This document shows, in pieces, positions 15,395-59,600 of a DNA stretch of 64,000 nt (positions are counted from its first letter, which is position 1; each line of letters begins with the position of its first letter). A model generated the notes under the pieces. That model was not told the origin of the DNA. It did not search any database and worked only from the letters and a program-made list of their open reading frames with translations. Position numbers and translations under genes: made by a program. The DNA is from a virus (lineage: Duplodnaviria; Caudoviricetes), in the IMG/VR virus record IMGVR_UViG_3300033120_000868, positions 32,001-96,000 of that record; one strand, written 5' to 3'.

Positions 15395-15396
15395 TT

Positions 15397-17379: not shown

Positions 17380-17394
17380 AATCAAATTAACCAT

Positions 17395-17424: not shown

Positions 17425-17436
17425 AATATAACATAA

Positions 17437-18282: not shown

Positions 18283-18305
18283 CAACTTAAAATAAGTAAA
18301 TAAAT

Positions 18306-35323: not shown

Positions 35324-35359
35324 CTAATTTGTATAAATTAATATTTTTTTGTAATTTTG
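35321..35359 (+). promoter_or_regulatory. TAACTAATTT-class promoter (cargo genes)
   Basis: TAACTAATTTG 35321; TAATTTTG 35352. Confidence 0.75.
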
Positions 35360-35401
35360 CCCCTTAGATTAATACCCTTTGGGGCATTTTTTATTATACA
35401 A

Positions 35402-39632: not shown

Positions 39633-39652
39633 AAATAAAAGTAGTAACTTTG
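39621..39652 (+). promoter_or_regulatory. Plain Bacteroidota-type promoter
   Basis: TTTG 39621, TAACTTTG 39645; no TAACTAATTT box. Confidence 0.55.
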
Positions 39653-39668
39653 CAAAAAAGATATAATT

Positions 39669-42407
39669 ATGGCGTTTGGCGTTAACCCAATAAAACAAGA
39701 TTTCGGACAAACTATTTCTACAGTGGCGGATGCGCAAAGAAACACTCAGTTTCAAACAGCACTACAAGAAAGGTTTGACGTAAACTCAGCAAAAATAGAA
39801 GAAGCTATACAAAGAGTATCTGCTATACCATTGTTAAGAGATAAAGATAAAGAGTATTTACAAAAGAATATGTCAAATATTTTAAACACTGTAAATGCTA
39901 ATATTAAAGCAAGCGGGGGTAGAAGTTTATTAAACAACAATATGTCGGGTCAGCTAACTAAGTTAGTTGGCTCTTCTATTGATGACTATTTAGTAGAACA
40001 GATGTCTATTTCAGCTCAAAAACAACAGTTTGATACTCAAGTGGCGGAAGAAAGAAAAAAAGATGCAAATACATTTAATGCAGGTAATTATCAATACTCT
40101 TTAGATAAGGCAGGATGGAATGAATATATGGAAGGTAAAGAAGACTCTTTAAAAGGAGGATTACAATACATACCATATTCAGATTGGAGTGCCAATGCTA
40201 CTAAAAAAGCCGCGGAATTAGCTAAACTAAAAGGTAAGAGAACTATTGAAATTGTAGATGAAGCAACAGGAAGAAAAACTATAAAATCAATAGACGGATT
40301 AAGACCTGACGAAGTGGCGGAATACTTACCAAACCTATTATCTTCTCAAGATTTACAGCAGATGCGTATTGATGGGTATATAAAAGGTAAAACAGACCCT
40401 GAAGGAACAAAGATGGAGTATGATTTACTACTTGATTCACAAATTACAAAAGCAACCGCATATAAAAAAGCAGCAGAAGCAACTTACAATTCATCTACAG
40501 ATGCCACTATAAAAGCAAATGCTAAAAGACAGATGGACAATTATGACGCAGTTATAAAACAGTCTGAGCAAAAGAAATCAAATGGAGATTTTGAATCTAT
40601 GGGTTATGATTTAGTCTATTCAAAAGGCAGAAACATATTAGTAGACCAACTGTCCACAGAAGAGTCTATATCTTATGAAATGGACGATGTATTTAAGTTT
40701 AATGCTGAAATGGCTATGGCAAAAGCTAAGTTAGAAGTAGATGCAGAAGCAAATGCAATAGCAAGTGGGACTTCTTTGGCAGGAATGGATGTAACACCCC
40801 TTTCTCAGGACAAAGAGAATATGAAAGTGGAGGATAAATATTCCGCTGTTAAAAATGAGCATGACCAATCTTATAACAGAATTGTAGGTATGGGGTTAAA
40901 TGTTTTAGAGGACAATACAGTTTCGGAAGATGTCAAAGCTAAATTTGAGGGAGAGCTATTAAGAAACGGCTTTAAAGTTGTAGAGCAAGGTGATGGAAAA
41001 TATTCAATAGAAAAAGACCCTAATGATAAAAGAGCTATAAGTAAAGCAAATGCTATTTCAGAAGCTATAAAAGTATCAAAAGCTTTACCTAAAGCAGAAA
41101 TGATACAATTAGATGAGCTTGTAAAAAATAAAAATTATATATCGAAAGCGTTGCATGAAGCAAATAAAGAATTTGGTAAAGATGTAGATACAGATGAGTT
41201 GGTAGATGATTTAGTAAGTGCTAAAAACACTTTGACAACCACATTACCTTTTAGAATGTTTGATGTAGTAGAGGGTTTATCAGATTTACGGAATGCTGTT
41301 AGTAGTATACCAAACATGATTAGTGGAGAAGGAGAACCTATTGAAACAAGTAAACAGAAAAGGCTATCCACTGCTTCAAAAATAAATAAGTTGATAGAAA
41401 GTAAAGGAGGGATAGACGGATTAAAAAAAGAAATGAAAGTTAACCCTGCATTAGCTCAACAAGTTGTCAATTTATTAGACGAATCTTCAGATGCTGATAG
41501 TCAAATCTCAAGAATAGATTATAATGGAGGAAAAGTAACAAGAAATCTAAAAAAAGCAGGAGAAAAATTAGATAAAATGGGATGGTCTTCTTTCTTTAAA
41601 GATAAGTCAGCTATACAAATCACATCTGAAAAAGCTAAAGAAGAGGTAGTAAACTCTATTGACCAAAATTTAATTCAAGAAGGAAAAGGTTTTGATACTA
41701 AAAAAGGAGGTATTACAGCTACACCTTATTACAACTCAAGAGGTGTTGTAGAAGGTTTTGATATAGTGCAATACAACACAGAGAATAAAGATGGTCAAGT
41801 GTTTACTAAAGCAAGAGTAGCGGTTTCAACTTTAGCAGGTCAAAAACTTATGTCTAAATTAGCTCAAGGGGATGAAAAAGATGCAAGAAAAGTACCTAAC
41901 AGTATGGAAATAACTCCTATGTATAAAAAAATAGAAAACCCTTTTCCTACAGATGTAGCTTCAACAGAGAGAGAGTATGATGATTTTATTTCTTTAGGTT
42001 TAAACAATGACCCTATTTTTAATTCTATATCGGTATTTTTTAATTCAGGAAAAGATGGAACAACAACAGTTAAGGATAATGTATTAAACTACGCAAAGTC
42101 TCAATTGTATGGAAAATATTCAGAAGAAGAAATTGAAGAGAGTATAAACAAAGTATCTGAAGGGTTTAGAACAGGAGAATACACTGCAAGTTTAAAGACA
42201 AATAAATTACCTTCACAAGGTACAGCTAAATGGGTAGCTACATTTGAAAAAGACGGTAAACCTATAGTACAACCATATAATTTTGTAAATACACCCAATC
42301 TTCCAAAAAACGCAGAAAATTACTTTAGAGCTTACCCACAATACGTAGCTTTAAACCAAATAATTGAAGCCTTGAAAAAAGGAACAGTAAAACCAACAGA
42401 CTTATAA
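39669..42407 (+). CDS. Internal virion (cargo) protein
   Basis: 912 aa, helical, no Cys, in the ejection-protein cluster. Confidence 0.65.
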   Translation: MAFGVNPIKQDFGQTISTVADAQRNTQFQTALQERFDVNSAKIEEAIQRVSAIPLLRDKDKEYLQKNMSNILNTVNANIKASGGRSLLNNNMSGQLTKLVGSSIDDYLVEQMSISAQKQQFDTQVAEERKKDANTFNAGNYQYSLDKAGWNEYMEGKEDSLKGGLQYIPYSDWSANATKKAAELAKLKGKRTIEIVDEATGRKTIKSIDGLRPDEVAEYLPNLLSSQDLQQMRIDGYIKGKTDPEGTKMEYDLLLDSQITKATAYKKAAEATYNSSTDATIKANAKRQMDNYDAVIKQSEQKKSNGDFESMGYDLVYSKGRNILVDQLSTEESISYEMDDVFKFNAEMAMAKAKLEVDAEANAIASGTSLAGMDVTPLSQDKENMKVEDKYSAVKNEHDQSYNRIVGMGLNVLEDNTVSEDVKAKFEGELLRNGFKVVEQGDGKYSIEKDPNDKRAISKANAISEAIKVSKALPKAEMIQLDELVKNKNYISKALHEANKEFGKDVDTDELVDDLVSAKNTLTTTLPFRMFDVVEGLSDLRNAVSSIPNMISGEGEPIETSKQKRLSTASKINKLIESKGGIDGLKKEMKVNPALAQQVVNLLDESSDADSQISRIDYNGGKVTRNLKKAGEKLDKMGWSSFFKDKSAIQITSEKAKEEVVNSIDQNLIQEGKGFDTKKGGITATPYYNSRGVVEGFDIVQYNTENKDGQVFTKARVAVSTLAGQKLMSKLAQGDEKDARKVPNSMEITPMYKKIENPFPTDVASTEREYDDFISLGLNNDPIFNSISVFFNSGKDGTTTVKDNVLNYAKSQLYGKYSEEEIEESINKVSEGFRTGEYTASLKTNKLPSQGTAKWVATFEKDGKPIVQPYNFVNTPNLPKNAENYFRAYPQYVALNQIIEALKKGTVKPTDL

Positions 42408-42408
42408 T

Positions 42409-45400
42409 ATGGTAGATATAGAAGATTTCAAAAAACAATTAGATTTAGCTTTCCCAACAAAAACTCCACAACAAGAAAAAGTTTTTGCTGAAATGGATGT
42501 AGAATCTAAAAAACAAGAATATGCTAACAAACTAAAAATACCTTCTGCACCAAGTTCAGGAGGTTTTTTAGATACCACTAAAATTAAATCTGAGCCAGGG
42601 TTAAGATTAGAAACTCCTAATTTTAATGTAGACGAAATATTTAGTAAAACTAACTCAGGAGAGTATATTGCTAAGTTTGATACTTACACACCTGGAATTG
42701 ATAATTATGATAAATTTTCAAGAGAGCAAACTACAGGAGATAAATGGTTGAATGGGGCAACTCAATTCACACAAACGGTTGTAAATTCTATAGCAGGTTT
42801 AGGTAATCTTGTTTATGGTACAGGTGCTATGATTAAAGAAGGGGAATTATCTTCTTTTTATGATAACGACTACATGAATTGGTTGGACGATGTTTCTGAG
42901 AAAAGAAGACTTAACAATCCGATTTACAAAACTTATGAAGAGCAAGAGATGGGCTTTGGAGAAAGCTTAGGTACAGCTTCTTTTTGGGCAGATGACTTTT
43001 TACAAGGAGCTTCTTTTACAGCAGGAATGATTGCTTCTGAGCTTGTTTTAAGAGGATTAACAGGAGGTGTCGTTGGAGGAGTTGGTTTATCAAGAGCAGG
43101 TCTTTCAGCAACTACTCAAGGAGCTTCTAAAATGAACACATTTAAAAATGCAATGGGACTTGCAAGAACCGCAGCGGTAAAACCTATAACAACAGCTATG
43201 TCAAATGTCCTTCCTAAATTAGGAGGAGCTACATTTGGGGCTAACTTAGGTAAAGTAGCTAATATTGTTAGAACAGGAGTTACTTCAGCAGGATATGAAG
43301 CAGGATTTGAAGCTCGTCACTTTATGCGTGAAATGAGAGCAAATTTTGAAGAAGATTTTATTGAAGCTAATGGAGTAGCACCAACAGAAGAAGACAGAGC
43401 AGAGTTTGAATCAGCTTTAAAATCAAAAGCCAATGGTTTGTTTGCTTTCAACGTAGCAGTTGTAGGTGCAAGTAATATAGCACAATTTGGCTCGGCTTTA
43501 GGGTTAAAACTTCCTAAAGTTAAAGGTTTTTCTTCTAATCCTGATAGTTGGATAAATAGAAAAGTATTTGGAGTCGGTGTACAAGACGGAGCTATTGCTA
43601 CAGCAACAATGGGTAACAAATTAGCAAGAGTAGGATACACTTTTGGTAAGAATGCTTTTTTAGAAGGTTTTGTGGAAGAAGGTTTGCAAGGAGTAGGTTC
43701 TAAAACAGCAGAAAAAATGCTGAAAGATTCTTATAGCTTGAATAATGCAAATCAAACTATGGGATATGCTAATGCTTTCTATCAATCTATGTCTGAACAA
43801 TATGGAACAGAAGAGGGGCTAAAAGAAGTTTACTTAGGAATGCTTATTGGAGCTATGACAGGTAGTGCAACTAATTTAGTTACAGCAAGAAGTTTAGCGG
43901 ATGGTAATTTTAAAGTATTAGACCAAAGAGCTAAAGGAATTGAAAAACAACTATTAAAAGGTGGGAGTTATTCTGCGGATAATATGGCTACAAGACTTTT
44001 ATCAGCAAATAGAACAGTAGCGAATAAAAGAGACGAACAAAAAGCTATTCAAGAAGGAGATATTTCAGGAGTACAAACAGCAAGGCATTCTGAAATGTTC
44101 AATCAAACTTTAAGAGGTATTGAATTAAATTATTTAGACCAAATTAAAGAGCAAACTTTACAGCAGTTAGATGTATTATCTGACGCGGAGATTGCAGAAA
44201 TGGCGGGAGTAGAAGTATCAGAAGCTTCAAGAATTAGAGAGGAATTAAAGAACGAATACAAAGCAGAAACAAAAGTAATTGAAGACACTATTAATGCTTC
44301 TAAAGAATTAATAGCAGGCTCACTTAATAAAGGTGAATATAATTTTGCGATTGAGGAGTTTCAAAAAAGAGGGTATAGTAAAGAGATGGCTAATGCTACA
44401 GTGGCTGATATGCTACAGAAATCTTTAGCTTATGAAATGTACATTGGTAAAGTAGCTTATGAACAAGCTGATAATTTCTTAAACACTTTCTTAAACGAGG
44501 TTCAATCTTCAATTGGTTCAACAAGAGTAAAGAAAAGTTTTGGTATCAATGACACTTTAAATCGTTCAGGAAAAGCTGCGAGAAGGAATTTTAATAAAAC
44601 TAAGAAAGAGTTACAACAAACTGTATCTGAATTAGAGCAGTTAGAAAAAGATTATAGAAGAGTTGAAAACATTATTTCTCAAACAACAGCCGAAACAGGT
44701 AATAGACAACAGTTAGTAGGGCAACTAAATGATTTAGTAAATAAAAGAGAAGAGTTAAATAAAAGAAAACAGGAGTTAGAGGCTAATGCAAATGCTTTGC
44801 TATCTTCTGCTAAATTGGAAACCCCTTTTGGAGCTACAGTAGACGCTACAGAGATTACAGCAGATGAAATTTTATCTTTTGAAGAAGATATTACAAAAAC
44901 ACTTGAAGACCTAAGAAAGGTTTCTCCTGAAAAAGCTGAAAGACTTGGGGGTATGTTATATGAATATCAAAAGTCGGTTAATGCCTACAAGACATTAGAC
45001 AAAAGAGTGAAACAATTAACAGACCCTAATGTAGGACTAAGAACTAAAAAAGGATTATTACCTTCTTTGTTTGGAAGAAAAACTCCAAATGAACAGACTG
45101 CCGAAATGATTAGGGGGCTTATAAACACTCACTATCAATTAGACAGAAACACTCAAGAAGGAGTAGAGAAGGCTGTTACCAAAGCAGCGGAAGAGCAATT
45201 AGTTGAGGCAGGAGTGGATAAGAAAGAAATTTTAGACTATTTAAAAGACCAACCTTATTTATTTGAGCAGTATAATGAATCAACAGAGAATATCATACCA
45301 ACTGAAGCTGAGATTGAAGAATACTATGATTTTGCTCAGAGAAATATAGCAGGAGAAGAACCCTTAACAGACGAAGAAAAGGTAAGATTTGAAGAGCTTA

Positions 45401-47796
45401 ATACAAAGTTAGCAAATTGGTATTTAACTGAATCTACACCTTTAGCAGATATCTTAAAACAGCAAGCTTTAAGAGAGACAAAAGTTGAAGAAACAGTAGA
45501 AGATGTTTTAACAGATGAAGATGTTGATGGGATGCTTGAAAAAGATAGAAAAACAAGCAGACCTTTCAATTTTTTACAGACCGTGCAAGATGTTTATTTA
45601 CAGTTTTACAAAGATAGTAATACATACTATTTTTCTCACCTGTCACCAAGAGGATTTTTAAAATTTATTGGGGCGACAACAGATTTAAAAGTACAAAGAA
45701 AAGATAGTAAAAAAGTTGAACCTTTTTCTTTAGACGATGAATTAAAAACAGGGGATAGAGTATTCTTTGGAAACAACATGTCGTTTGCTTTAGAGGACGG
45801 AGCGAGAATAAAAATTGTAACATCAAAAGAGAACTTTAATTCTTTCGGTTTTAAAACAAGAATGACAGCAAGTGGATATAGTGTAGTTTACGATGGAGAT
45901 AAAGTTATGAAATCTGATTATGCAGATATAGACACTTACTCACCTCAAGAAATAATGAGGTTAGCTAATGGAGATGAAATATTTGCTTTTATAGATATGG
46001 AAGATAGTTATAATCAATCTCTAACAGAAGAAGAGTTTGAGCATAATGTTAAAATATCTTTCAGAGACGCTCAAGGTAATAAAATTGCAGATTTAAAAGC
46101 TTTACATTTAGCAGAGGCACAAGATACTTCAGAAATACCTGTTAAGTTTTTAGAAGCTCGTGCAAAAGCAAAAGAATTAGCTTGGGGTAAAACAGGAAGT
46201 ATTGAGTTAGGAAATGTAACAGTTGAAACAGTATTTTTAGGAGCTCCAAACGTAGTTTTAGAAAATGGAGTAGAGAAATGGCAACCTGTTGATGAAAATT
46301 TAATAGAAGACTCAGGAATGTGGAATGGAAGTAAATTAGTAACTAAGAATGGCACAAAAGGGATAAGAACAGATTTACTAAAAGGTATTGATAAGAAAGT
46401 TCCTGTTGTAATTGTAAAAGTTGGAAACACTTTAATTGCATATCCTGTTAGAGGAGGAAAAGTAGCTTCTAATATAGCAGAAACTTTCACTGAAAAAGGA
46501 GCTAAATTAGCATTAAAAATTAATGAAACTCTTATTAAAAATGGTAAAAAACCTGCTCAAATATATTATAATTCAGAGACAGACCAAAACATGTATTCAG
46601 AGGATGGAACGCCAACTCAAGAATTGCAAGATGCTTTAGACAGAGTTAACAGTATAACAACAGAATCAACAAATATAGCAGAAGCTGAAATAAACATTGA
46701 TTTAAATGGTATACCGTTCTTAGCTCCAAAGATGGCAATTAACTTGGACAGTTTCCAAACAGTTAATGTAGCACCTGTAGGGCAGGCAACCTCCCAAAGT
46801 AATATAACTAGTGAAACAAAAGTAGAAGAGGTTTTAACACAGGAGCAAAAGGATAATTTAGAAAAAGCTAAAAAAGGAGAGAAAGCTTCTCCTGCTAAGA
46901 CTATTTTTAATTCTGTACAAGATTTACTGAAACACTCAAAATCACTGTTAGGTAAAACTTTTAACGTAAAAGGATTAAATGTTCAATTCGTTGACTATAA
47001 AGGCGAGGTTTTAACAGGAGCTGGTCAAAGAGTTTTTGTAAAAGTTTTAATAAATGGAGTTCCTGTAACGTTTTATAGTTCGACAGGTTCAGGCAAGAAA
47101 GCTTTACAAGAAGGAGTTTTTTATCCAACATTAGGTATAGAGGCAGACGAGAGATTTAATGGAACTTGGATTAATAAGATAGACGGTGTTGAAATGGCTT
47201 CTTATTATGACTCTGCTTCATTAGCAGCAGTAGGAGCTTTTATAGATTCTCAATTTGGAAACACTAATGGTTTTGCAGGAAGTATAAATCAAAACACAAC
47301 TGACTTACAAAATCCTAACAAAGAAGCCTTAACTAAAGAAAAAGCTTTGGAGATTAGAAGAGAGTATAACAGTGAATATTTAAATAGCGGTAGAGAAACT
47401 TTTTCAAATAATCAAGCTAAAGAAGTTACACAAGCTTTTAAAGATTTAGTTAATGAGATAAGAGGAAAAGTTAATAATACTCAACCTGCTCAAAAACCTA
47501 AAAGCAGATTAGACTTACAAGATGATTATTTTACTTTAGATTTTAAAACGTATGCTTATTTTAGAGATACAAATGGTGATGTTTATACAAAAGAAGTTGG
47601 AGAAATAGCTAGAGCTAAAACAATGTCTAACATGGTAAAAACTCTACCAAAAGCAGAACAAGAAAGAGTAAAACAAGCATGGACAAAGCAACCAGCAGAT
47701 TACTTTGAAAGTGAAAATTTTGAGAAAGTTGTACCAAACGTAGGAACAAGTTCGCGAACAAAACAAGGTAAGAAAAATAAAGATAAAGAGTGTTAA
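42409..47796 (+). CDS. Giant internal virion protein 1
   Basis: 1795 aa; Gly/Ala-rich hydrophobic N-terminal region (EGFVEEGLQ), coiled coils; sole Cys is the last residue. Confidence 0.75.
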   Translation: MVDIEDFKKQLDLAFPTKTPQQEKVFAEMDVESKKQEYANKLKIPSAPSSGGFLDTTKIKSEPGLRLETPNFNVDEIFSKTNSGEYIAKFDTYTPGIDNYDKFSREQTTGDKWLNGATQFTQTVVNSIAGLGNLVYGTGAMIKEGELSSFYDNDYMNWLDDVSEKRRLNNPIYKTYEEQEMGFGESLGTASFWADDFLQGASFTAGMIASELVLRGLTGGVVGGVGLSRAGLSATTQGASKMNTFKNAMGLARTAAVKPITTAMSNVLPKLGGATFGANLGKVANIVRTGVTSAGYEAGFEARHFMREMRANFEEDFIEANGVAPTEEDRAEFESALKSKANGLFAFNVAVVGASNIAQFGSALGLKLPKVKGFSSNPDSWINRKVFGVGVQDGAIATATMGNKLARVGYTFGKNAFLEGFVEEGLQGVGSKTAEKMLKDSYSLNNANQTMGYANAFYQSMSEQYGTEEGLKEVYLGMLIGAMTGSATNLVTARSLADGNFKVLDQRAKGIEKQLLKGGSYSADNMATRLLSANRTVANKRDEQKAIQEGDISGVQTARHSEMFNQTLRGIELNYLDQIKEQTLQQLDVLSDAEIAEMAGVEVSEASRIREELKNEYKAETKVIEDTINASKELIAGSLNKGEYNFAIEEFQKRGYSKEMANATVADMLQKSLAYEMYIGKVAYEQADNFLNTFLNEVQSSIGSTRVKKSFGINDTLNRSGKAARRNFNKTKKELQQTVSELEQLEKDYRRVENIISQTTAETGNRQQLVGQLNDLVNKREELNKRKQELEANANALLSSAKLETPFGATVDATEITADEILSFEEDITKTLEDLRKVSPEKAERLGGMLYEYQKSVNAYKTLDKRVKQLTDPNVGLRTKKGLLPSLFGRKTPNEQTAEMIRGLINTHYQLDRNTQEGVEKAVTKAAEEQLVEAGVDKKEILDYLKDQPYLFEQYNESTENIIPTEAEIEEYYDFAQRNIAGEEPLTDEEKVRFEELNTKLANWYLTESTPLADILKQQALRETKVEETVEDVLTDEDVDGMLEKDRKTSRPFNFLQTVQDVYLQFYKDSNTYYFSHLSPRGFLKFIGATTDLKVQRKDSKKVEPFSLDDELKTGDRVFFGNNMSFALEDGARIKIVTSKENFNSFGFKTRMTASGYSVVYDGDKVMKSDYADIDTYSPQEIMRLANGDEIFAFIDMEDSYNQSLTEEEFEHNVKISFRDAQGNKIADLKALHLAEAQDTSEIPVKFLEARAKAKELAWGKTGSIELGNVTVETVFLGAPNVVLENGVEKWQPVDENLIEDSGMWNGSKLVTKNGTKGIRTDLLKGIDKKVPVVIVKVGNTLIAYPVRGGKVASNIAETFTEKGAKLALKINETLIKNGKKPAQIYYNSETDQNMYSEDGTPTQELQDALDRVNSITTESTNIAEAEINIDLNGIPFLAPKMAINLDSFQTVNVAPVGQATSQSNITSETKVEEVLTQEQKDNLEKAKKGEKASPAKTIFNSVQDLLKHSKSLLGKTFNVKGLNVQFVDYKGEVLTGAGQRVFVKVLINGVPVTFYSSTGSGKKALQEGVFYPTLGIEADERFNGTWINKIDGVEMASYYDSASLAAVGAFIDSQFGNTNGFAGSINQNTTDLQNPNKEALTKEKALEIRREYNSEYLNSGRETFSNNQAKEVTQAFKDLVNEIRGKVNNTQPAQKPKSRLDLQDDYFTLDFKTYAYFRDTNGDVYTKEVGEIARAKTMSNMVKTLPKAEQERVKQAWTKQPADYFESENFEKVVPNVGTSSRTKQGKKNKDKEC

Positions 47797-47802
47797 AGAG
47801 AG

Positions 47803-47828
47803 AGGAGTTCAGAAATGAGCTCCTTTTT
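47803..47828 (+). terminator. Intrinsic terminator
   Basis: AGGAGTTC-agaaat-GAGCTCCT then TTTT. Confidence 0.75.
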
Positions 47829-47894
47829 AACTTATTTTAATATTTAATTTTTTTGTTGTATATTTGCGTATCAAAAAATAAAATTGTATATTTG
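47828..47894 (+). promoter_or_regulatory. TAACTAATTT-class promoter plus a tandem plain promoter
   Basis: TAACTTATTT 47828 with TATATTTG 47859; second TATATTTG at 47887. Confidence 0.7.
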
Positions 47895-47910: not shown

Positions 47911-50900
47911 ATGAACTGTAGAATAATTTACAAAGATAGTAAAATAGACCACGTACAAGCTGAAAATGGAGAAAGAAGTATTCTTTTTGATTCTCTTAAA
48001 GATATTTTTGGCGCGGAAAAAGCTTTAGAATTGTATGCTTTAACTGAAGAAGACGGCTACAAACAAAAAATACAAGAAAAAGTAAGAAGTTTTGTAGGAG
48101 TTACAGAAAAACAAATAGATAAACTATCTGAAGCAATTGATGCACAAGAAACATTAAATAAACTTGTAGAAACAGGTTTAGCTGATAACGTATATCAAAT
48201 GACTTCTGAAGAGATAGAAGCTAAGTTAGTTGAACTTGGAGTGGAAGCTGATGTGGCTAAACAGGTAGCTCAGTCAGGAGGATATTATTCTAACGCTAAT
48301 ACTGCATTTGCAAATTTAAAAGACAAAAATGTTAAAAATGTACAAGGTTGGATGAAAGCCCTAACTGACGTACAAAAAAATGGCGGAATAAAAAATGTAA
48401 ATCAAGAACTTGAATGGATAGGTCTTGAAGATTATTTAAATAACTACGTAAAAGAAAACAACCCAAAAGCAGGTAACATCCCTTCTTCTGTGGTTGAAGA
48501 TTATATTAAGTCAAATCAGATTGAGATTGTTGATGTTACTAAGGGAAACAATATTGTACAACAAGAGATTGAAGATAACAGTAAAAGATTAGATTTCATC
48601 ATTAACGAGTTAGATAATAAATATCTTTTTGATGAAAGCGGTAATAGAGTTCACTATATTAAAGATGAGAATCTACCAAAAGAAGCTGTAGCTTTAATAA
48701 TTGAGAGAGAAGAACTTAAAAAAAGAAACAGAGAACTTTTAAAATTAAATCAGAAAGACACAAAATACTCAGGATACCAACTAAAAGGAGCAGAAAACTA
48801 CAGAGAGGTATTGTTAACAGTTCCAAAAATAGGGCAAGAAAAAAACAGACAAAACCAAATAGATTTTGTAGATTCATTAAAGAAAAAATATAATGTTAAT
48901 ACTGTTATAGATTTAGATAAAGTTGTAAATGATGAGGAAAGAACTAAATGGGAAGAATTAACGACCAAAGCAAATATATCTCCTGAAAAGGATAATAAAT
49001 ATTTTAGTAGTCATTGGGAGGAAGCTAATATTTTAGCTCACGTAAGGTTAAATGAAAAAACTTTACCTGATGGACGTAAAGTGTTGATTGTTAATGAAAT
49101 TCAATCAGATTGGGCACAACAGGGGAGAAAGGAAGGATTTAAAAGAACAAAACAAGCTCAAAATGAACTTATAGCAGAGCATAGAAAAGTATTACAAGAT
49201 TTAGAAGAATTAGACGTACAAATAATCGATGCAGTAGATAATAAAAAACCTAATATTTTAGAACTAGGAGAAAAGAAAGCGGAATTAATTAAAAAATCAG
49301 ATGAATTAAGAAGTGATATTTTTAAACCTCGTGCTCCTCAAATGCCTTATAAAAACACAGACCAATGGACTGGAATTGTTGTAAGAAGAGTGATGCAAAT
49401 GGCTTCACAAGAAGGTTATGATGGAATTGCTTTTGCTACAGGTCAACAGTCTGCTGATATGTATAGTTTATCTAATCAAGTTGAAGTTCTGTATTACAAA
49501 AAGAATGAAGATGGAACTTATGAAGTAGATGCTGATTTAAAAAATGGAGATAATAGAAACATTGGCGAATCTGTAACAGAAGATAAACTTGCAGACTATG
49601 TAGGTAAAGAGGTTGCAAACAAAATTATTGCAGGAGAAGGTACAAACTCCCCATCTCGAATGGATGAAGGTTATAAGTTTTTAAAAGGTTTAGAACTTGA
49701 AGTCGGAGGAGAAGGTATGAAAACTTTCTATGATAAGATTGTACCTAAAGTAGTTCAAAAAGAAGCTCAAAGATTTGATAAAAACGCTAAGTTAGAGACT
49801 GTCGATTTTAGTGATAATTTTACTTTTAGTAAGAAAGAGTTAGATGATTACACGAATTATTTACTAAACAAATATAATTTAGATAAGACAGGGAGGTATA
49901 GAATATTAATAGGGAAAAATGCAACAACAGAAGAAGTAGCTAAATATAAAAACTTATTAGAGAATTTTAGAAAAGATAATGATAGTAAGACATCTCAAGG
50001 TGATAAACTATCTTTAGGAGTACAACCATACTTACCACTAACACAAGCTATAAAAGATTCAGTTAATCAAGGTATACCTCAATTCCAAAAATCAGGAATA
50101 ACTCCAATTACAAACGGGTTTATTTATAAGAATGATGTATATTTAAATAAGAATGCAGATGAATCTACAATGGTACATGAGTTTAACCATTTATACAACA
50201 ATTGGTTAAAACAAAACCGTCCTGAAGTTTATAAGAAAGGTTTAGATTTAATTAAGGAGGAGTTAAAAAAGAAGAACAGTGAAATCCAAGACATAATCAA
50301 TTTTGTAAAAACTAATCAACCAAAATTAGAAGGAGATGCACTTTTAGAAGAGATTATTACCGAAATGGTCGGAAGGAAAGGGCTTGAATTATTAAATGAG
50401 CAAAAAGATAAAGTAAAAAGCTCAGGAATAATTGACTATTTAAAACAAGTTTGGCAAGAAATTAAAAATATGTTAGGATTATCATCTTACACAGATGAAC
50501 AAATCCTAAACATGAATTTACAAGATTTTGCCAACGCTTCTGCTGTAGATTTATTGAGTGGAGAAAACATAGGAAGATTCTCAACAGATAGTAATGACAT
50601 TAGGTTTAGTCAAACTATACCAACATTTAAAGGAAATGCTGATATAGAGAGAATAAAAAAACTTAATAAAAAAGGAAACGAAGATGGAGCAACATTTAAT
50701 TTAGATGGAAGTACTTATGATAAGGGAGGTTTAATTATACCTGTAATTAGTTTAAATACTACTCAAAAGGAGTTATCGAAAGAGCTTATAGAAAAGTTTA
50801 TTCAGGAAAATTCAAGTAAGATTGGAGCTGATAATATTAAAGTAGGTATTTTTAAGTTTGAAGATTCTAATGAAGTATCTATAGATTTAAATGTAGTAGT

Positions 50901-53637
50901 AGATGCTAAGTATAGAGACATAGGTTTAACTTTTGGAAAGTATGCAGGACAAGAATCTTTATTTGATTTAAGTACTTTTTTACCTGCAAAAACAGGTGCA
51001 GATGGTAAGAACCCTAAAAATTTCACAGATGAGGAGTTTAGGGATATTGCTAATAGCTTATCAGAAGGTAAGTTACCTAGCTTTTTAAATTTATCTCCGC
51101 AAACTTCTACAAATTATGCAAATTTAACAGAAGATGGAGAAGGAAACTTTGTATTTTACCATGTAGGAGGTAAAGGATATGATGTAATAAAAAGAGGTAC
51201 AGGACAAAACACAGCAACAAGCAGAGAAGAAGCAACAGCTATAAACAGAGTAGGTGGAGTAGCAATGTATTATCCTGCTGAAAATGTTCAAGAGTCTATG
51301 TTTTCAGGAGAAGCTAAGTATTTAGTAAAAGTTCCTCAAGAGAAAGTTTACGACTTTAATAGAGACACTTTAAATTTATTAGACGAAGCTGAGCAAATGT
51401 TTAGAAAGCAGTTTCCTAATCAAGCTTTTGATAAAAACTCTAAGTTAGCTTTTGTAACTAAAATCGCTAATGAAAAAGGATTTGATGCAGTTGTAGCTAA
51501 TTGGGATAATACAACAAGAGTTCAAACAACTAAAGAGTTGAAACCTTTAGATGAGCAAATTACAGAAGGTAATAAAATTGTTAAAGATTTTTCCGCCGAA
51601 AATAAATTTAAATCAAATAAAGATAAAGGTTGGCAAGTTGTCCCAACAGTTATGCAAAGCAAGCTATTAAAAGACGTATATGATAAAATAGATACTTTAG
51701 TAGGAAACGACTTTTCAAATCCTTTGTATAGAGTTAGAGAAATGGCAGGGTATACTTTTGAAGACAGATTTGCACCATTTAAATCTCAAGATGAGATAAC
51801 GGATGTAGTAGAAAAATCAGACCTTCCTCAAGAAGTGAAAGATGAGTACAATCAAGCAGTTAACTCCAAAGACAAGCTAGGATATTCAAAATTGACTAAA
51901 AAACCTTCTTTAAAGATAGACATAAGAGAAGTTAACGGAAGATTAGTTGTTGAAACTTTAGTAAATGAGACTAAAGCAGGTGCGTTGAGAATGTTGCCTT
52001 ATGAAGATGGTTATAAAGTAGAGTCAGTTATAGTGTACGATAAGTATCAAAATAGACGTTTGGGGACACGATTGTATCAAGAAGCTATAAAGTTTCTATT
52101 GAAGAGTCAAACTCCTTTATACTCTCTTAAAGTACGTAGTGAAAATGCTAAAAAGATTTGGGACAAGTTTGTAGAAATAGGTGTGGCTCAAAAAGTAGGT
52201 GAAGATTATATTGCACCAAATAAAGGAGGATTGGATAAGAACAATGAGGCAAATCCTTCTGATGTAATGCAATATGCAAACACAACAGATGAAAAACTGT
52301 CAAAAGAAGAAACAGCAGAAGCTATCGACTTAACAGTTTCTTTAGGAGTTGAATCAAGCCAAGAAGCTGTAGCTATTTTAAAGGATACGTTCTTAGAAAA
52401 CAACTCTTTTGTGTTTGATAAAAAGAAAATGAAAAAATCAGGGTTTAATGATTATGAAATTACAAAGATATTAGTTGATGTAAATTTACAGAATCAAATT
52501 AAGAACAACTTGGCAAAATTAGAGAACATGGATTTTTCTGTACCTCTAATGGACGTTCAAACAACACCTGAAATTGGAATTTTTGGAAAACAAAAAGTAA
52601 AACCGAAAGTTAAAACTGTAAATGTAAAAACAGTAAACGAACAAGGAGAAGTAATAGATAAAGTTTCAGATACAAAAGAGTTATTAAGAAAAACTTATCC
52701 TGATACTTTACCAACAGAAATTCCACAAATAATAAGTAGTCTTTTAAAAGCTTCTGAAAGTGTAGTTAATAAGTATAATGATTTATTTTATAATACTTTA
52801 GATGATTTAAAAGATGTTGCTTTAGATTTAGGTGTAGATTTAAAAGATATTGAGAATAGAGTGTTTCCTTTAGAAAACTTTAAATCTTTTGTAAACTCTT
52901 TAATGAATTATTATACAAATCCAAGTGATGCTTTTGCTGAAGTTTATGATGAGTTTTTTGAGAATTATGGCGTGGAAAAAGCTACTAAACCAACAATATC
53001 AACTCCATATACAGAATATGAGTTATTTGATAAATTCAATTTAGTAAGAAACGGAGACGAATATGTTAAAGTTGAAGATGTAGAAATCGAACCGTCTGCT
53101 GAAAGACAAGCTAAAATTCCACAATTAGAAGTAGAAGATTTTGCTGTTGATTTTGATAAATTAGAGAAATTAGTTTATCATAAAGAGCAGTTAGGAGTTG
53201 AAATGAAAACTTTACAGAAGCCTTTAGTTGAAGAGATTAATCTTAGAGAAGTTAAGAAAAATCCTTACTTAAAAGCAACTTCTGAAGGTGTAAAATTAGT
53301 AAGCGAAGACCCTCTAACAGCTCAAAAAGCAGAGTTATATGGGTACGAGCCAAAAGTGGCGGAAAAACAACCTAAAAAGATAGAAACAGATTATTCTTTA
53401 ATCCAAGATGTATTAGTAACACAACTAACTTCCGAAAATAAAGTAAGAACACCAAAAGGTAACTTTACTAAATTTATGGACGACAATAATAAATCAGTGT
53501 TTTTATTAGACGGTTCAAAACAAAGTACAGTAGATTTAGAAGGATATTTATCTAAAGCGGACAACACACCAAAAATCGAGGCTAAAAAATTATACTCAAA
53601 AGAAGAATATGAAAATAATTTTGGATGTTTAAATTAA
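47911..53637 (+). CDS. Giant internal virion protein 2, polyvalent (EIQSD module, zincin, SAM-lyase-like, ART-like, GNAT)
   Basis: NEIQSDW, HEFNH, GQESLFDL, VFYH...KGFDAV, KYQNRRLGTRLYQ; no polymerase DFDxD motif. Confidence 0.75.
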   Translation: MNCRIIYKDSKIDHVQAENGERSILFDSLKDIFGAEKALELYALTEEDGYKQKIQEKVRSFVGVTEKQIDKLSEAIDAQETLNKLVETGLADNVYQMTSEEIEAKLVELGVEADVAKQVAQSGGYYSNANTAFANLKDKNVKNVQGWMKALTDVQKNGGIKNVNQELEWIGLEDYLNNYVKENNPKAGNIPSSVVEDYIKSNQIEIVDVTKGNNIVQQEIEDNSKRLDFIINELDNKYLFDESGNRVHYIKDENLPKEAVALIIEREELKKRNRELLKLNQKDTKYSGYQLKGAENYREVLLTVPKIGQEKNRQNQIDFVDSLKKKYNVNTVIDLDKVVNDEERTKWEELTTKANISPEKDNKYFSSHWEEANILAHVRLNEKTLPDGRKVLIVNEIQSDWAQQGRKEGFKRTKQAQNELIAEHRKVLQDLEELDVQIIDAVDNKKPNILELGEKKAELIKKSDELRSDIFKPRAPQMPYKNTDQWTGIVVRRVMQMASQEGYDGIAFATGQQSADMYSLSNQVEVLYYKKNEDGTYEVDADLKNGDNRNIGESVTEDKLADYVGKEVANKIIAGEGTNSPSRMDEGYKFLKGLELEVGGEGMKTFYDKIVPKVVQKEAQRFDKNAKLETVDFSDNFTFSKKELDDYTNYLLNKYNLDKTGRYRILIGKNATTEEVAKYKNLLENFRKDNDSKTSQGDKLSLGVQPYLPLTQAIKDSVNQGIPQFQKSGITPITNGFIYKNDVYLNKNADESTMVHEFNHLYNNWLKQNRPEVYKKGLDLIKEELKKKNSEIQDIINFVKTNQPKLEGDALLEEIITEMVGRKGLELLNEQKDKVKSSGIIDYLKQVWQEIKNMLGLSSYTDEQILNMNLQDFANASAVDLLSGENIGRFSTDSNDIRFSQTIPTFKGNADIERIKKLNKKGNEDGATFNLDGSTYDKGGLIIPVISLNTTQKELSKELIEKFIQENSSKIGADNIKVGIFKFEDSNEVSIDLNVVVDAKYRDIGLTFGKYAGQESLFDLSTFLPAKTGADGKNPKNFTDEEFRDIANSLSEGKLPSFLNLSPQTSTNYANLTEDGEGNFVFYHVGGKGYDVIKRGTGQNTATSREEATAINRVGGVAMYYPAENVQESMFSGEAKYLVKVPQEKVYDFNRDTLNLLDEAEQMFRKQFPNQAFDKNSKLAFVTKIANEKGFDAVVANWDNTTRVQTTKELKPLDEQITEGNKIVKDFSAENKFKSNKDKGWQVVPTVMQSKLLKDVYDKIDTLVGNDFSNPLYRVREMAGYTFEDRFAPFKSQDEITDVVEKSDLPQEVKDEYNQAVNSKDKLGYSKLTKKPSLKIDIREVNGRLVVETLVNETKAGALRMLPYEDGYKVESVIVYDKYQNRRLGTRLYQEAIKFLLKSQTPLYSLKVRSENAKKIWDKFVEIGVAQKVGEDYIAPNKGGLDKNNEANPSDVMQYANTTDEKLSKEETAEAIDLTVSLGVESSQEAVAILKDTFLENNSFVFDKKKMKKSGFNDYEITKILVDVNLQNQIKNNLAKLENMDFSVPLMDVQTTPEIGIFGKQKVKPKVKTVNVKTVNEQGEVIDKVSDTKELLRKTYPDTLPTEIPQIISSLLKASESVVNKYNDLFYNTLDDLKDVALDLGVDLKDIENRVFPLENFKSFVNSLMNYYTNPSDAFAEVYDEFFENYGVEKATKPTISTPYTEYELFDKFNLVRNGDEYVKVEDVEIEPSAERQAKIPQLEVEDFAVDFDKLEKLVYHKEQLGVEMKTLQKPLVEEINLREVKKNPYLKATSEGVKLVSEDPLTAQKAELYGYEPKVAEKQPKKIETDYSLIQDVLVTQLTSENKVRTPKGNFTKFMDDNNKSVFLLDGSKQSTVDLEGYLSKADNTPKIEAKKLYSKEEYENNFGCLN

Positions 53638-53643
53638 TTTTCA

Positions 53644-53651
53644 TATCTTTG
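53644..53651 (+). promoter_or_regulatory. -7 promoter box
   Basis: TATCTTTG ending 28 nt before ATG; TTTG about 24 nt upstream. Confidence 0.55.
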
Positions 53652-53678: not shown

Positions 53679-56600
53679 ATGGCTTGTAAATTAGTATACA
53701 ACAATGAAGGACAATTTGTGAAGGCTCTAACTCCTGATGGGAGAGAGTCTTCCTTATTTAAACAAATTTTAAGTATTCCGCACATTAGAAGTGTAAAGGA
53801 AGCTTCTGAACTATATGCAAATATTTTCTCTAAGAAAATGTATTCTATTATGGGAGAAAAAGGAGCTCAAAACTTAGATAAAGCTCAAGAAGTTACATTC
53901 CGTATGGATAATCTTCGTATTGCTAAAGAAATGGAGAAAGAAAATAAATCTCCAAAAGAAATAAAATTAGCAACGGGGTGGGAAAGAAGTGAAGTAGATA
54001 ATAAATTCAGGTATGAGATTTTAGACGGAAGTTTTTCTAATTTAAATTATGAAAGAAATCAACCTCATGGTACTTTTACAAACGGAGTAGGTGTCTTACC
54101 TTTATCTGAAATATATCAAAATAAGGAACTATTTGACGCTTATCCAAATATAGAAAATAGTTCTGTAGTCATATACTCAACAGATAACCCTGTATTTGAC
54201 CAAGCTACTATGTTTAATTTTCAAAATACTATATTTATAAATGAAAGAAAATCAATTACCACAAATACCGAAGGACTTCATACCCTCACCAACCAGGGGA
54301 GAAGAGTATTATTACACGAATTATCCCACTCTGTTCAAAATATTGAAGGATTTGGAAGAGGAGATAATCCTGCAACAATGGCAACAAGAATTAAAGATGC
54401 CCTTAATGAATTTAAAAGCGAGAATAAGACAGTTGATGAAATAAAGCCAAATACTATTTTAAACACTTTAAAAAATATAGGTGTTGACTTTTCTTTTGGA
54501 TTAGATGATTTTTCTATAGACTATATAGCACAGAATTATTCTGAAGACTTATACGAAAGAGTTTCAGGAGAAGTTGAAGCAAATAACGTATCAAAAAGAT
54601 TTGGAATGAGTTTAGAAGAAAGAAGAAATTCCCTTTTTTCAGAGACACAAGACGTATCTACAGAAGACCAAATATTTTTAGAAAATAATTTAGGAGTGAG
54701 TTCAAAAGTAGAACCACAACTAAACTTCCAATCAGATAAAGGAAATACATTCAAAACTTTCAAAGAAGCTTTAAAAGATTCTACAGGAGGTGATATGAAC
54801 GTGTTATTTGATGACCAAGTAGTTGGAGTAATTAACAGTGAGCAAAATTTAGATACTTTTGGAGGAACAGTAAACCATTTAATTGCAAGTAATATTTTAT
54901 CAGAAAACACTATTGTAGAAAACGGTAAAGTTTATTTAAAAGCAGAAGGTTTTGACCCTCTAAAACAACTTATTAATGAAGACTACTTAAAAGAATATTT
55001 CCCACTATCAAAAATTACAAGAGACGGTAAAGTGGAAGTATTAGAAAGAGTAGAACCTTCTGTTATTAGAGATGTATTTAGGACTTTCTCGCCAAGTGAA
55101 GGACAACTTTCGGAAGAAACATTAAAAGACAGAATGTTAAATTTCTTAAAAGAGGTTGGCATCACTGTAACTTCTATTGATAATTATGTAAAAGCTTATA
55201 AGATTAGAAATGGTGTTGCACCAGGAGCTGAAGCTATTGCAGACTTTGCTAATCAAGTAATTGCGTTTAAAGATGGAGAAATAGAAATTGACAAACTTTC
55301 AGAAGAAACAGCTCACTTTATTATTGAGAATTGGGATGAAGCTGAGATTAGAAATCTTACACGTAATATTCACAAAACTCAAACTTTTGCTGAGTTCTAT
55401 CAACAATATTATGAGATTTATCAAAGAGAGAATCCTGAAATGTCTGCCGAAGAATTAGATTTTTTCACAAGAAAAGAAATTTTAGGAAAAGAGTTAGCAA
55501 AAAGTTTACAAGATAGATTTGATGCTACAAATAAAGAGCCTAACATTCTTAAAAGAATTTATGAACTTTTTGCTAAATTTATCAGTAGTTTAACAACTCA
55601 AGGTAATTATAAAGCTCAGTTAGAAGATTTAACTGAGAAGGTTGATGATTTATTATTAAGAAAAGATGCAGGAGCTGTTTTTCAATTGAAAAATAAAAAG
55701 TTTAGAATGTACTCATTGCCTCAAACTAATGTAGTTAAGGCGGTAGCGGAACAAGAAAAACTTTTAGCAAGAACAGGGCAAGGCTCTAATAAAACAGCAA
55801 AAGAGGTTTTGGATAGCGTTTCAAAAGCCGCGGAAAAAGCTACAACGGATAGTGTAGTTACTTTAGCTAAAAGACAGGTAAAATATGTTAAAGAAGCCGT
55901 AGATGCAGCCGTTAGAAGAGGAAGACCTCTTTCAACAGAAGAGTCATTAGTTTTAAACAACTTAACTCATGCGGTTAGACCTGCTTTAGAAGGATTACAA
56001 GCTTTTATAAAGAATAAGTCGGAATATAAAAAACAAGCAGACGTAGTTGAAAAAACTTTATCTGAGATTTCTATGATTTCAGGCTCTTATAATAACGCGG
56101 AAAACAATTTAGTAGACCAATTATTAGACAGAATTATTGAAAGAAATCCTGGATTAGAAAGTAAAAGAGACCAATTAAAAGCAGAAATAGAAACAGTACA
56201 AAGGGATACTAATTACATGTATTCTTACTTTGGACAGGTTTCTCACGCTTCTGACCCAATTCTACAAATGTTAGCTGTTGTAGGTAGTGATATTTACAAT
56301 GAAGCGAGGATAAACTATAACGAGCGTCAAATGGCGTTTAATAGAAAAATAAAAGAACTAGGATTTGTAGAAAGAGATGTGAACAAGTTAGTTGGCAGTG
56401 ATGGTCATATTATCTCTAAGTGGGATTTTGAAGAATTTGCAGAATTTGAAAGATATGCAAGAGGTAAAGCTTATTTAGATAATGTTGATGCTATTATAGC
56501 AGATTTAGAATCAAGACCTGTAGAAAACCAAGATAATTTAGAAGAGCATAAAGCTTATAAAGCAATGTCTCAAGAAGAGTTTTTAGAAAAATTTGAATAT

Positions 56601-59600
56601 TTCCCTGCAATTACAAATAAAGTTTTGGCAGCAAGAACTTCAGCTCAAGCAACAGAGATTATAAATCAAGGAGAAGAAACTACTTTATCAGACGAAGAAG
56701 TACAAAAGAGAATTACAAACAATGCAAATTTAAGTGATGTAACTAAAGCTACAATAAGAGGCTTTATGGAGACAAGAGCTATGATTCGTAAAAACATGAA
56801 AACTTCTTCTTCAGGCACTAAAATTTATACGTTACAGAACAGACACGATATGGAGTATTTGAATATGGAGCGTAGAAAAGCTATGTCAATTTATAAGACA
56901 GAAAACGCTAAGGAAGTTAAGCAAGGACTATCCACTTCAACTGCCAAAATTGGGCAAGAAAATTTATTTTTAGAAATTGAAAATCAGTATTTAAATTTAG
57001 ATAGAGCTAACGCGTCGGATGAAGCAATTATAGCTTTTGAAATGCTAAGACAGCAGAAAGAGTTCATGTCTAAAAACACTTCAAGACTTTCAGGAGTTAC
57101 AGAAAAATTCATGCAGGATTTAGAAGATATGGAAAAAGACCCTGAAGTGACAAGAGAAGATTTAATAGATTTTATTAAACTTAACACTTCTGTAGGGTTT
57201 TCTGATTCATTTTTTGAAGGGGAATTTACTTCTGTTTTTGATACAATAGAGAATGATGTAAATACACCTGATGAGTTACAAGACACTTTAATTTTATATA
57301 AGGAAGCTTTAAAAGAAAGAAAAGCTATTTTAGCTAGGTATAGAGACCCAAACAATGCAACAAATGTTTTGACCCATAACATGAATGATTTAGATTTGTA
57401 TAACCTTGAACAACTTACAATAGAGTTAGAGGGACAAACTAAAACATTACTGGACTATGCTAAAAAACAAGGATTAACTTCAGAGCAAGCAGAAAAAAGA
57501 ACAGTAAAAGCTCCAAATGAGTCTTATTATGAGGAATTGAAAACTCAAAATTTAGAAGATTTTGAAGATATATACAGTTTTACTATAAAACACATGACTC
57601 CAAAAGCTAAAATGGCTGTAGGGGCGTATAAATTAGCAATTGAATCAGGGAATATTCCTGAAAGAATGGAGTCTTTAGTTGTAGAATATGGGGCTAATGA
57701 AGAAGGTATTTTAAAATATGCTCAATCTAAAATGCTACCATATTACAGTTCAAATTCTCCTATAGGATTAGTAGAGTTTTATGACAATTTAAGAAATTCT
57801 CAAACAGCAGTTTCTGACCTTGTAAAAGGGTTAGATGCAGACCCTGATGTAAGACTTTCAGTTTCTTATGATTATTCTGATAGTACTTCTGATGAAGCTT
57901 TAAATAAATTTAAAGACCCTGATTTTAGAGCCAACACAAGAGAGCCGTCTTTAAGAAAACCTGCTCCTACAGTATTTGGAAAAACATTCGATTTTAATAA
58001 TAAGGAGTATAGTAAATTAACTCCTCAATTATTAGAATTGCAAAAAGCTTACTTAGACTTTCAAGAAGAAAATTTAAAAGGTTATGGTGTAGAAGCAAAT
58101 TATAATATATATAAACTACCTCAAGTAGAAAGAGCAAATTTAGATAAGCTTAAAGGGTTTGGTAAAGACACAAAAGCTACTTTTAAGGAGTATGTGGAAA
58201 GGATAACAACTCATAGAGTAGATGAGCAGGATTTTGGAGCAGATAGAGAAATGTTTAATGCGGGTATAAAAACAATACCTAAAAAATATTTAAGTAAATT
58301 AAACAAAGAAGAAGTATCGACAGATTTATTATATTCTTCAGCTTTACTTGCACAACAAGTAGAATTATATAAAGCAAGAGTTAAATATTTTGGAGAAATT
58401 TCAGCTTTAGAGAAGAAGTTACAGTCAAGACAGTTTATTGGAGGAAAACCTGTACAATCTTCAAATACTTATGCTATGTTTAAGTCGGCTGTAGACAATA
58501 TGATGTTTGGAATACAAGAGACTCAACAGATGAGAGTTAGCGTTCCAATTTTAAATAAGGAGGTAGACTTATCTAAGGTTTTAAGAACCTTGCAAAGATA
58601 CGTATCTAATCTGAGTTTAGCATTTAATCCTATTGTACCAGCAACTTCCATGCTAACAGCTATGTCAGCTTATGTAGCTGAACCATTTATAAAACAGTAT
58701 ATAGACCCTGAAAGTTACAAGAAAGGGTCTATGACAGCTAAAAAATGGATGGGAGCAAGTATGAAGGATACAGGAAGTATTGATGTAAAATCGGATGCTG
58801 TAGCTGTAGGAAATCATTTTGGTATTTTTGATTTAGCTCAAAGGTATAAGAATGCAAATTATGAAAAGTTTGTGAGAACAGCAGTTGGTAACGCTTCTTA
58901 TGGATTACACACAGTAGGTAATTTTATACCGCTAACTCAAGCTGTCGCAGTAACGCTTACAGCGCATAGATTTAGTAATAATAAATTAATTACAAGAAAA
59001 GAGTTTGCAGGAACAGATGTTGAATGGGGCAGATTAAAAAGTGTAGCTGATTACATAGAAAATAGTAATGGGGAGATGACTTACAACTCAGAAATGTTAA
59101 GAGAAAACGGCATAACACCTGAACAGTGGAAAAACATTGAGTTAGGGCTTATGTCAAGAGTTGGTAAGATTGTTGAACGAATTGATGGGCAGATTAAAAC
59201 TCAAGATAGAACAGTAGCGCAAAGAAATTTCTTACTGTCTTGGAGTATGCTTCATAAGGGGTGGTTAGCAATCGGTACAGCTAATGCTTTTAAAGGAAAG
59301 CAGATTAATATGTTAACAGGTCAAGTTGAGCAAGGAAAATATACAGGAGCATTAAGTTGGGCGATGAAATCAGCAGGTCAAAAATTTAATATTAAGAATA
59401 TTAAAGATAAGTACGGAGAAGTAGATGAGGCTGATAAAGTTTCAGCAAGAAGAGTTTTAGTAGAGTCAGGGGTTTTAATGATATTAACTATTTTAGGATT
59501 TTTTATAGCGGCAGGTGCTGACGACGATGAAGAAAGTACAACAAAACAGCTTGCAAATTATTTAGCTTTAAGAACTAAAAATGAAACAATTTCTTCTCAA

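Follow-up and report, generated by a model that had tools for sequence, protein, structure and literature searches.

What occupies the position of the virion RNA polymerase (vRNAP) in a relative of the crAss-like phages that has no recognisable polymerase gene, and which enzyme would transcribe such a phage? We addressed this question in a stretch of 64,000 nucleotides (the window, whose numbering is used here unless stated otherwise), bases 32001-96000 of the viral record IMGVR_UViG_3300033120_000868, which is 143,493 bp long and rated complete by CheckV. The gene under study is an open reading frame (ORF) found at exactly 47911-53637; we refer to its 1908-residue product as slot protein B. 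The original prediction held that this gene sits in the vRNAP position of a polymerase-less phage lineage, encodes a multi-effector polyvalent protein and belongs to a phage that transcribes with the RNA polymerase (RNAP) of its host. Our analysis supports this interpretation in silico and confirms part of the observations on which it was based. We estimate a probability of about 65% that slot protein B is a virion-packaged polyvalent effector, that a polymerase payload is absent and that the phage depends on host RNAP.

The gp66 position and the search for a polymerase

In Cellulophaga phage phi14:2 the gene order is gp67, gp66, gp65. The middle gene encodes the vRNAP (DFDID at residue 1361), and the three products are virion components that are fused in some phages (10.1101/2020.03.07.982082). 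In the window, slot protein B lies between two other large proteins, giant A upstream and giant C downstream (Table 1). Giant A matched phi14:2 gp67 in blastp (E 4e-9), colinear at both ends, and matched gp038 of Cellulophaga phage phi4:1 with an E value of 3.7e-100. Giant C matched phi4:1 gp035 (E 1.3e-140); its C-terminal 600 residues aligned weakly with phi14:2 gp65 (E 0.009-0.03) and also matched a 'putative RNA-polymerase subunit' of cr106_1. Because its neighbours are gp67-like and gp65-like, ORF 47911-53637 occupies the gp66 position, and its slot equivalence with gp66 holds. The plus-strand arm to which it belongs encodes, in order, TerL, portal, a major-capsid-type protein, tail proteins, the crAss muzzle protein, a transglycosylase-bearing protein and five further large proteins. 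This virion block is colinear with that of phi4:1 (genus Lightbulbvirus, 145.9 kb), the counterparts there being gp042, gp040, gp039, gp038 and gp035 (blastp values down to 0.0). The genome is that of a marine relative of the crAss-like phages. Its colinear counterpart phi4:1 belongs to the 'Epsilon' group, in which phi17:2, the sister phage of phi4:1, was placed by Yutin et al. (PMC7886860).

Nowhere in the genome did the searches detect a recognisable phage RNA polymerase. A hidden Markov model (HMM) was built from eight vRNAP cores (the gp66 residue 850-1500 region), all of which carry G-x-D-[FY]-D-x-D-[KS] without variation. When single cores were left out as controls, the model still recovered each of them, whether it came from one of four families or from Fpv3, with an E value of at most 7e-56; across the ORFs of the whole genome in six frames its best E value was 0.47. 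Four Pfam families, RNA_pol (T7-type), Rpb1_2, Rpb2_6 and RdRP, also gave nothing in the six-frame genome, the Rpb families having positive controls in 14 of 14 reference genomes and the T7-type family having none. Whole gp66 found no match in the genome, and hhalign of each module of slot protein B against the vRNAP catalytic core gave at most 0.4%. Nor was a polymerase among the listed matches of two multi-domain AlphaFold2 models of slot protein B, although GNAT proteins and helical hits took up these lists. The ORFs outside the window are all 838 residues long or shorter, the largest encoding PolA, RNR, DnaB, RecA, PrimPol and an exonuclease.

Slot protein B contains no DxDxD motif and, as had been predicted, no giant carries a DFDxD-type motif in a polymerase context. 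Several DxDxD occurrences were considered as polymerase motifs and rejected. The three in cargo giants are either not conserved (DADPD in giant C, absent from its phi4:1 and L011 contig homologues) or located in acidic linkers (DVDTD and DEDVD). DIDID (residue 1711) sits in the muzzle protein, DMDFD in PolA, and the remaining occurrences in ORFs of 104-208 residues.

A tblastn search with gp66 residues 850-1500 matched 146 phage records, including Steigviridae, Intestiviridae, Suoliviridae, Fpv3, IAS virus and Azobacteroides phage; no Epsilon-group record was among the best 40 of these matches. Absence of the transcription block from the Epsilon group was described by Yutin et al. in 2021 (PMC7886860). 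However, a virion RNAP has been reported in gut Epsilon phages (PMC11054128), where a 752-residue crAssE-Sib 'DNA-dependent RNA polymerase' was annotated by an HHpred match to gp66 (95% probability, 46% coverage). The annotated protein is ORF98, which lies in the same slot (L030:20651-22909; OR575929 92650-94908), has a leader and a C-terminal cysteine like those described below, and is a homologue of phi4:1 gp037. It lacks DxDxD, aligns with gp66 only over residues 1-110 by blastp and over gp66 residues 2-196 by hhalign (61.5%), and gives 0.1% in hhalign against the vRNAP catalytic core; no homologue of its body occurs in the present genome. These comparisons suggest that ORF98 is a carrier-end homologue and that what was published as the 'vRNAP' of gut Epsilon phages may be a carrier domain, not a polymerase.

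This annotation is one of the points in favour of a phage-encoded RNA polymerase that escaped detection because of its divergence or fragmentation and that could lie in modules M7 or M8 of slot protein B, in giant A, in giant C or in small ORFs. The very fast evolution of crAss vRNAPs would fit the same idea, as would the fact that modules M4, M5, M7 and M8 were folded only inside multi-domain models. We nevertheless regard such a polymerase as highly improbable, given a core HMM that detects every held-out vRNAP and nothing here, the absence of Epsilon-group records from the best 40 of 146 gp66-core matches, the properties of ORF98, and slot-protein modules of which none resembles the core.

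Modules of slot protein B and their relatives

A search of 5.8 billion proteins recovered 120 partial homologues of slot protein B and no full-length one. Module borders were set by mapping these homologues (Table 1). The 'EIQSD' module M2 proved real, with EIQSD itself at 49096-49110, and is both conserved and transferable, occurring in many other phage giants. Its invariant motifs are PGGENYRE, SSHW, ExQSDW, GYDxVAF and GGEGMKTFYDKIVP, and it belongs to no Pfam or PHROG family. M2 was also found in many unrelated phage contigs (L013-L022) and in the cyanophage Dolichospermum phage Dfl-JY45 (68602-69945).

The two AlphaFold2 models covered residues 1-900 (mean predicted local distance difference test score, pLDDT, 76.3) and 895-1908 (76.1). 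With the first, Foldseek gave no match in the PDB at E ≤ 0.001. Among solved structures its globular matches, beside helical-hairpin noise, were solely GNAT-fold proteins over residues ~160-725: the ICL2 C-terminal domain (match values 9.9, 3.1 and 129), Rv1916 (9.6, 4.1, 141), TacT2 (9.3, 3.7, 123), TacT3 (8.9, 4.0, 131), AtaT (8.8, 4.5, 139) and KKT23 (8.8, 3.5, 144). Against viral models (BFVD) the best matches, which start at E 1.9e-24, were to 'large polyvalent protein associated domain' proteins and to large uncharacterised ones. A shape search of a language-model atlas returned unnamed viral clusters and GNATs, and a feature search of the atlas with M2 was uninformative (best score 0.80). 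In the predicted structure, the core of M2 is a GNAT-like fold with insertions. For residues 895-1908 every listed match was a GNAT protein on residues 1332-1443, in agreement with Pfam. This region is module M6, which has both the sequence profile and the fold of GNAT acetyltransferases; at the acetyl-CoA motif [QR]-x-x-G-x-[GA] it reads R-R-L-G-T-R, so that the last position is neither G nor A.

M3 contains the predicted HEFNH (50176-50190). The H-E-F-x-H motif and a Glu 54 residues downstream are kept across a 46-sequence alignment, and by this HExxH plus downstream third ligand M3, which has no Pfam hit, is classed as a putative zincin. While the zincin and GNAT modules of the original prediction stood, its SAM (S-adenosylmethionine)-lyase-like and ART-like modules could be recovered only as weak resemblances, and we describe M4 as possibly DUF3293-like and M5 as possibly ART-like. 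M4 (no Pfam hit; PF11697, PF23780) aligned with the DUF3293 module of relatives at 56% in hhalign over 66 columns, with a common FxKxxxQES motif. M5, also without a Pfam hit, gave 8.6% in hhalign against ART-PolyVal (PF18760). Two M5 motifs are colinear with those of ART-PolyVal (E-D-G-x-G-N-F-V-F-Y-H-x-G with E-N-G-x-P-x-x-V-x-H-x-T, and A-M-Y-Y with G-F-W-F), and by atlas features (0.90, 146-160 shared features) its ten best named hits were all ART-PolyVal; a search for stand-alone M5 homologues found just four unnamed proteins.

Slot protein B itself shows no polyvalent-specific Pfam domain (ART-PolyVal, LPDs, MuF) at E ≤ 0.1, and in NCBIfam it has a sub-threshold rimI match only. Its relatives recombine the modules in other orders and add ART-PolyVal, LPD23, LPD38, MuF_C and DUF3293/S-AdoMet_lyase domains. 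Canonical forms occur at residues 782-917 of relative P0002 (ART-PolyVal) and 103-174 of P0011 (DUF3293/S-AdoMet_lyase), where slot protein B has no counterpart. A relative 94% identical over the C-terminal 1023 residues bears an ART-PolyVal domain at a junction where slot protein B has none. Polyvalent proteins as described by Iyer et al. (PMC5512222) shuffle their modules in this way. Of the features that mark that class, slot protein B shows several domains of disparate activity in one protein (the zincin M3, the GNAT domain M6 and the GNAT-fold M2) and a location among virion or late genes.

Table 1. Coordinates of the features discussed (window numbering; aa, amino acids)
Feature	Position	Strand	Remarks
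crAss muzzle protein, 2005 aa	29306-35323	+	Pfam crAss_MUZ, E 1.6e-14
Transglycosylase-bearing gene	35357-36355		In structural block
Cargo giant A, 1795 aa, gp67/gp038 homologue	42409-47796	+	blastp, phrog_32390
Cysteine codons at the junctions of A, B and C	47794-47796, 47917-47919, 53626-53628, 53685-53687		
Terminator-like hairpin	47799-47828	+	Just 3' of giant A
Bacteroidota sigma-A type promoter, TTTG-N20-TATATTTG	47863-47894	+	Ends 17 nucleotides before the slot-protein ATG
Slot protein B, 1908 aa, polyvalent protein	47911-53637	+	
M1, aa 1-125	47911-48285	+	Leader (MNCR...) and helical domain; shared with giant C, phi4:1 gp035 and crAssE-Sib ORF98
M2, 'EIQSD' module, aa ~125-732	48283-50106	+	Predicted GNAT-like fold core, large insertions, coiled-coil hairpin at aa 412-474
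M3, zincin-like, aa 724-889	50080-50577	+	H-E-F-x-H and Glu at aa 814
M4, aa 905-1059	50623-51087	+	Alpha/beta domain, pLDDT above 90; possibly DUF3293/SAM-lyase-like
M5, aa 1061-1320	51091-51870	+	Possibly divergent ART-PolyVal-like (EDGxGNFVFYHVG ... AMYY)
M6, GNAT acetyltransferase domain, aa 1317-1442	51859-52236	+	Pfam and fold matches
M7 (aa 1442-1727) and M8 (aa 1720-1908)	52234-53634	+	Conserved C-terminal modules ending ...FGCLN
Bacteroidota-type promoter upstream of giant C	53620-53651	+	
Cargo giant C, 2079 aa, starts MACK	53679-59918	+	Body homologous to phi4:1 gp035, weakly to phi14:2 gp65

Terminal signature and probable packaging

Slot protein B has just two cysteines in 1908 residues, Cys3 and Cys1906. 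The single cysteine of giant A is its final residue, and giant C has Cys3, so that in the three giants cysteine is confined to their junctions. The giants encoded at 35357-42407 have no cysteine, and the muzzle protein has 24. The same junction pattern was found in phi14:2 gp67/66/65, in phi4:1 gp038/037/035, in crAssE-Sib and in L012, a 151-kb gut Epsilon contig. In the window, giant A ends ...KEC, slot protein B starts MNCR and ends ...FGCLN, and giant C starts MACK; the corresponding termini are ...NTIC, MACK, ...QECK and MSCK in phi14:2 and ...FMC, MASC, ...LKCN and MSCK in phi4:1. As a further pointer to the gp66 position, independent of the neighbouring genes, slot protein B and gp66 are alike in an M-x-C-[KR] start with a cysteine near the C-terminus, and a terminal signature is common to both of them, phi4:1 gp037 and ORF98. 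Among the 120 homologues of slot protein B, 50 have a cysteine within the first six residues and 51 within the last six; the median number of cysteines per protein is one. A leader HMM made from the N-terminal 130 residues of these homologues reached giant C (2e-11), ORF98 (4e-12), phi4:1 gp035 (1e-8) and the gp035 homologue of L011 (4e-6).

The content of the slot is highly variable among relatives. In phi4:1 it holds two proteins, gp037 (517 residues) and gp036 (119 residues), and in contig L011 a 2159-residue polyvalent protein with ART-PolyVal lies between the gp038 and gp035 homologues. The 722-residue slot protein of L012 shares the GNAT region of slot protein B (28% identity, E 4e-20). 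L012 also encodes a fusion (10001-18808, P0025, 2935 residues) that carries homologues of M1b-M3 (residues 66-889) between a leader and a gp035-type body, which argues that payload modules move between slot protein B and its carrier C. A search for related loci recovered only M2-bearing ones. As a separate observation, phi4:1 gp036 (L004:19439-19798) is a YAcAr (SLOG) domain, typical of polyvalent and conflict systems.

The variability of the slot, together with the gene's own promoter and upstream terminator, could also be explained if the gene were a recently acquired passenger in a recombination hot spot, encoding a late-expressed, unpackaged cytoplasmic multi-enzyme protein. We consider this improbable, as the leader and the C-terminal cysteine persist in the homologues counted above while the middle has turned over completely, and as the leader is common to gp035, a virion protein verified by mass spectrometry (gp035, gp037 and gp038 of phi4:1 are annotated from tandem mass spectrometry virion proteomics). 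For the same reasons, we suspect that selection maintains a step of handling which these proteins have in common, such as packaging.

A packaged protein might also be structural. Slot protein B could be an ejectosome component, a trans-envelope channel or a wall-degrading device whose enzymes act on the envelope. Its gene lies in the structural block that also holds the transglycosylase-bearing gene, long helical regions are predicted in the protein, and digestion of peptidoglycan was raised as a possible function of the gp65 zincin by Drobysheva et al. (10.1101/2020.03.07.982082). The cofactors of GNAT-fold and possibly ART-like modules are cytoplasmic, however, and free module shuffling among relatives suits payloads better than a load-bearing structure; the two short proteins of phi4:1 argue that the slot requires no fixed structural length. 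A structural role is thus unlikely in our view, if less so than an unpackaged passenger.

Host-type promoters and the proposed role of the slot protein

The original prediction of host-type promoters throughout the locus was borne out. The window contains 19 copies of the Bacteroidota sigma-A type motif TTTG-N17-21-TAnnTTTG, compared with 4.1 ± 2.3 for shuffled sequences, and sites lie 17-28 nucleotides upstream of the starts of the portal gene, slot protein B, giant C and others. E. coli-type -35/-10 promoters were not enriched (28 versus 26.3). Since in phi14:2 both middle and late genes are read by host RNAP (10.1101/2020.03.07.982082), it is the enrichment seen in the non-structural arms that is informative. 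With approximate shuffles, arm 1-35000 of the record had 16 sites on the coding strand and 2 on the other (shuffle mean 3.5) and arm 94501-143493 had 13 and 2 (3.4), while the early arm of phi14:2, which is transcribed by gp66, had 1 and 2 (0.8). In each of the genome's three arms the coding strand is enriched in the motif. This fits, but does not prove, that early genes too are read by host RNAP.

On our preferred reading, in which slot protein B is a packaged polyvalent effector, its gene would be transcribed late by host RNAP from its own host-type promoter. The product would be packed with giants A and C, with the shared leader and terminal cysteines as likely handling signals, and would be ejected with the DNA into a Bacteroidota host upon infection. 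There its enzymes (the GNAT-fold modules M2 and M6, a zincin and, probably, modules of ART-like and DUF3293-like type) might modify proteins or nucleic acids of the host, either to take over the cell or to counter its defences; the M3 zincin may also cleave the chain into separate effectors. Host RNAP would then begin phage transcription. With a polymerase payload absent, the phage most likely relies on the sigma-A RNA polymerase of its host from the very start of infection. We infer the steps from packaging onward, including ejection, enzyme activities and targets, from the mass spectrometry-verified neighbours in phi4:1 and phi14:2 and from the polyvalent-protein paradigm, in which such proteins have been described as injected early effectors (PMC5512222).

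Several points weigh against this reading, besides the report of a vRNAP in gut Epsilon phages. The evidence for slot protein B in virions and for its ejection is indirect, and the promoter figures are motif enrichment, not transcription data. Neither gp66 nor gp65 itself is detected with the leader HMM, so that the link of the slot protein to gp66 consists of position, a short terminal motif and the bridge via ORF98 (blastp 1e-3, with the hhalign match given above). Half of the eight modules are without a fold assignment, and M2 may not be an acetyltransferase because it lacks a canonical acetyl-CoA motif. PHROGs held no family for slot protein B, and sequence searches of the PDB (whole protein; profiles of M2 and M5-M8) found no relative.

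Compared with phi14:2 gp66, slot protein B has the same gene position among the late virion-block genes, a similar size (1908 versus 2180 residues) and similar termini. It differs in lacking DFDxD, similarity to the core and a listed polymerase fold match, and its payload consists of unrelated enzyme modules. With the polyvalent proteins of PMC5512222 it shares disparate domains in one giant (peptidase, GNAT, possibly ART-like), extreme shuffling among relatives and a virion-gene context, and its relatives carry hallmark domains of that class; its carrier, however, is a crAss-type three-protein cargo set with leader and terminal cysteines, rather than MuF, portal or relaxase. The slot proteins of phi4:1 (gp037 and gp036) and crAssE-Sib (ORF98) share position and terminal signature with slot protein B. 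They comprise 517-752 residues with a gp037-type body, whereas slot protein B has about eight modules and lacks that body. As a concept, head-packed enzymes that are delivered with the DNA and act before phage gene expression are known from T4 Alt and the P1 DarB-type enzymes (PMC5512222), to which slot protein B has no detectable sequence relationship and which belong to another phage lineage with another packaging route.

Polymerase loss in the Epsilon group is already on record (PMC7886860), and the class of polyvalent proteins is likewise known. What appears not to have been described so far is a polyvalent protein that keeps the terminal signature and sits in the bay of the vRNAP within a conserved set of three cargo proteins. 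Slot protein B would be the middle member of a conserved cargo trio (gp67-like, X, gp65-like) in which X is the two-barrel RNA polymerase gp66 in Crassvirales proper. The locus may show what replaces the vRNAP when it is lost: the carriers and the terminal signature stay constant, and the payload becomes a set of exchangeable enzymes. A bolder proposal, which we put forward tentatively and with some doubt, is that the trio forms a modular ejection chassis common to Crassvirales and Epsilon-type relatives. Its members would be marked by the leader (M-x-C-[KR]...G..S.LF) and the junction cysteines, which might either join each member to the next, head to tail, or be left over as scars from an ancestral polyprotein, and the middle would be a free payload bay for a vRNAP, a gp037-type protein or polyvalent arrays. 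If so, the crAss vRNAP would be one cargo among several, and loss of the polymerase would be offset by injected host-modifying enzymes. The locus itself provides a concrete model for addressing very large proteins to the capsid and ejecting them. It is also a natural chassis on which early transcription that needs a phage polymerase can be compared with early transcription that depends on the host, in related phages whose Cellulophaga hosts can be cultured.

Giant C has an extra N-terminal insert (53829-54758, residues ~51-360) that contains LPD23 (residues 73-117) and a HELSH zincin motif (residue 213). Since this insert is missing from phi4:1 gp035, giant C may itself be partly polyvalent.

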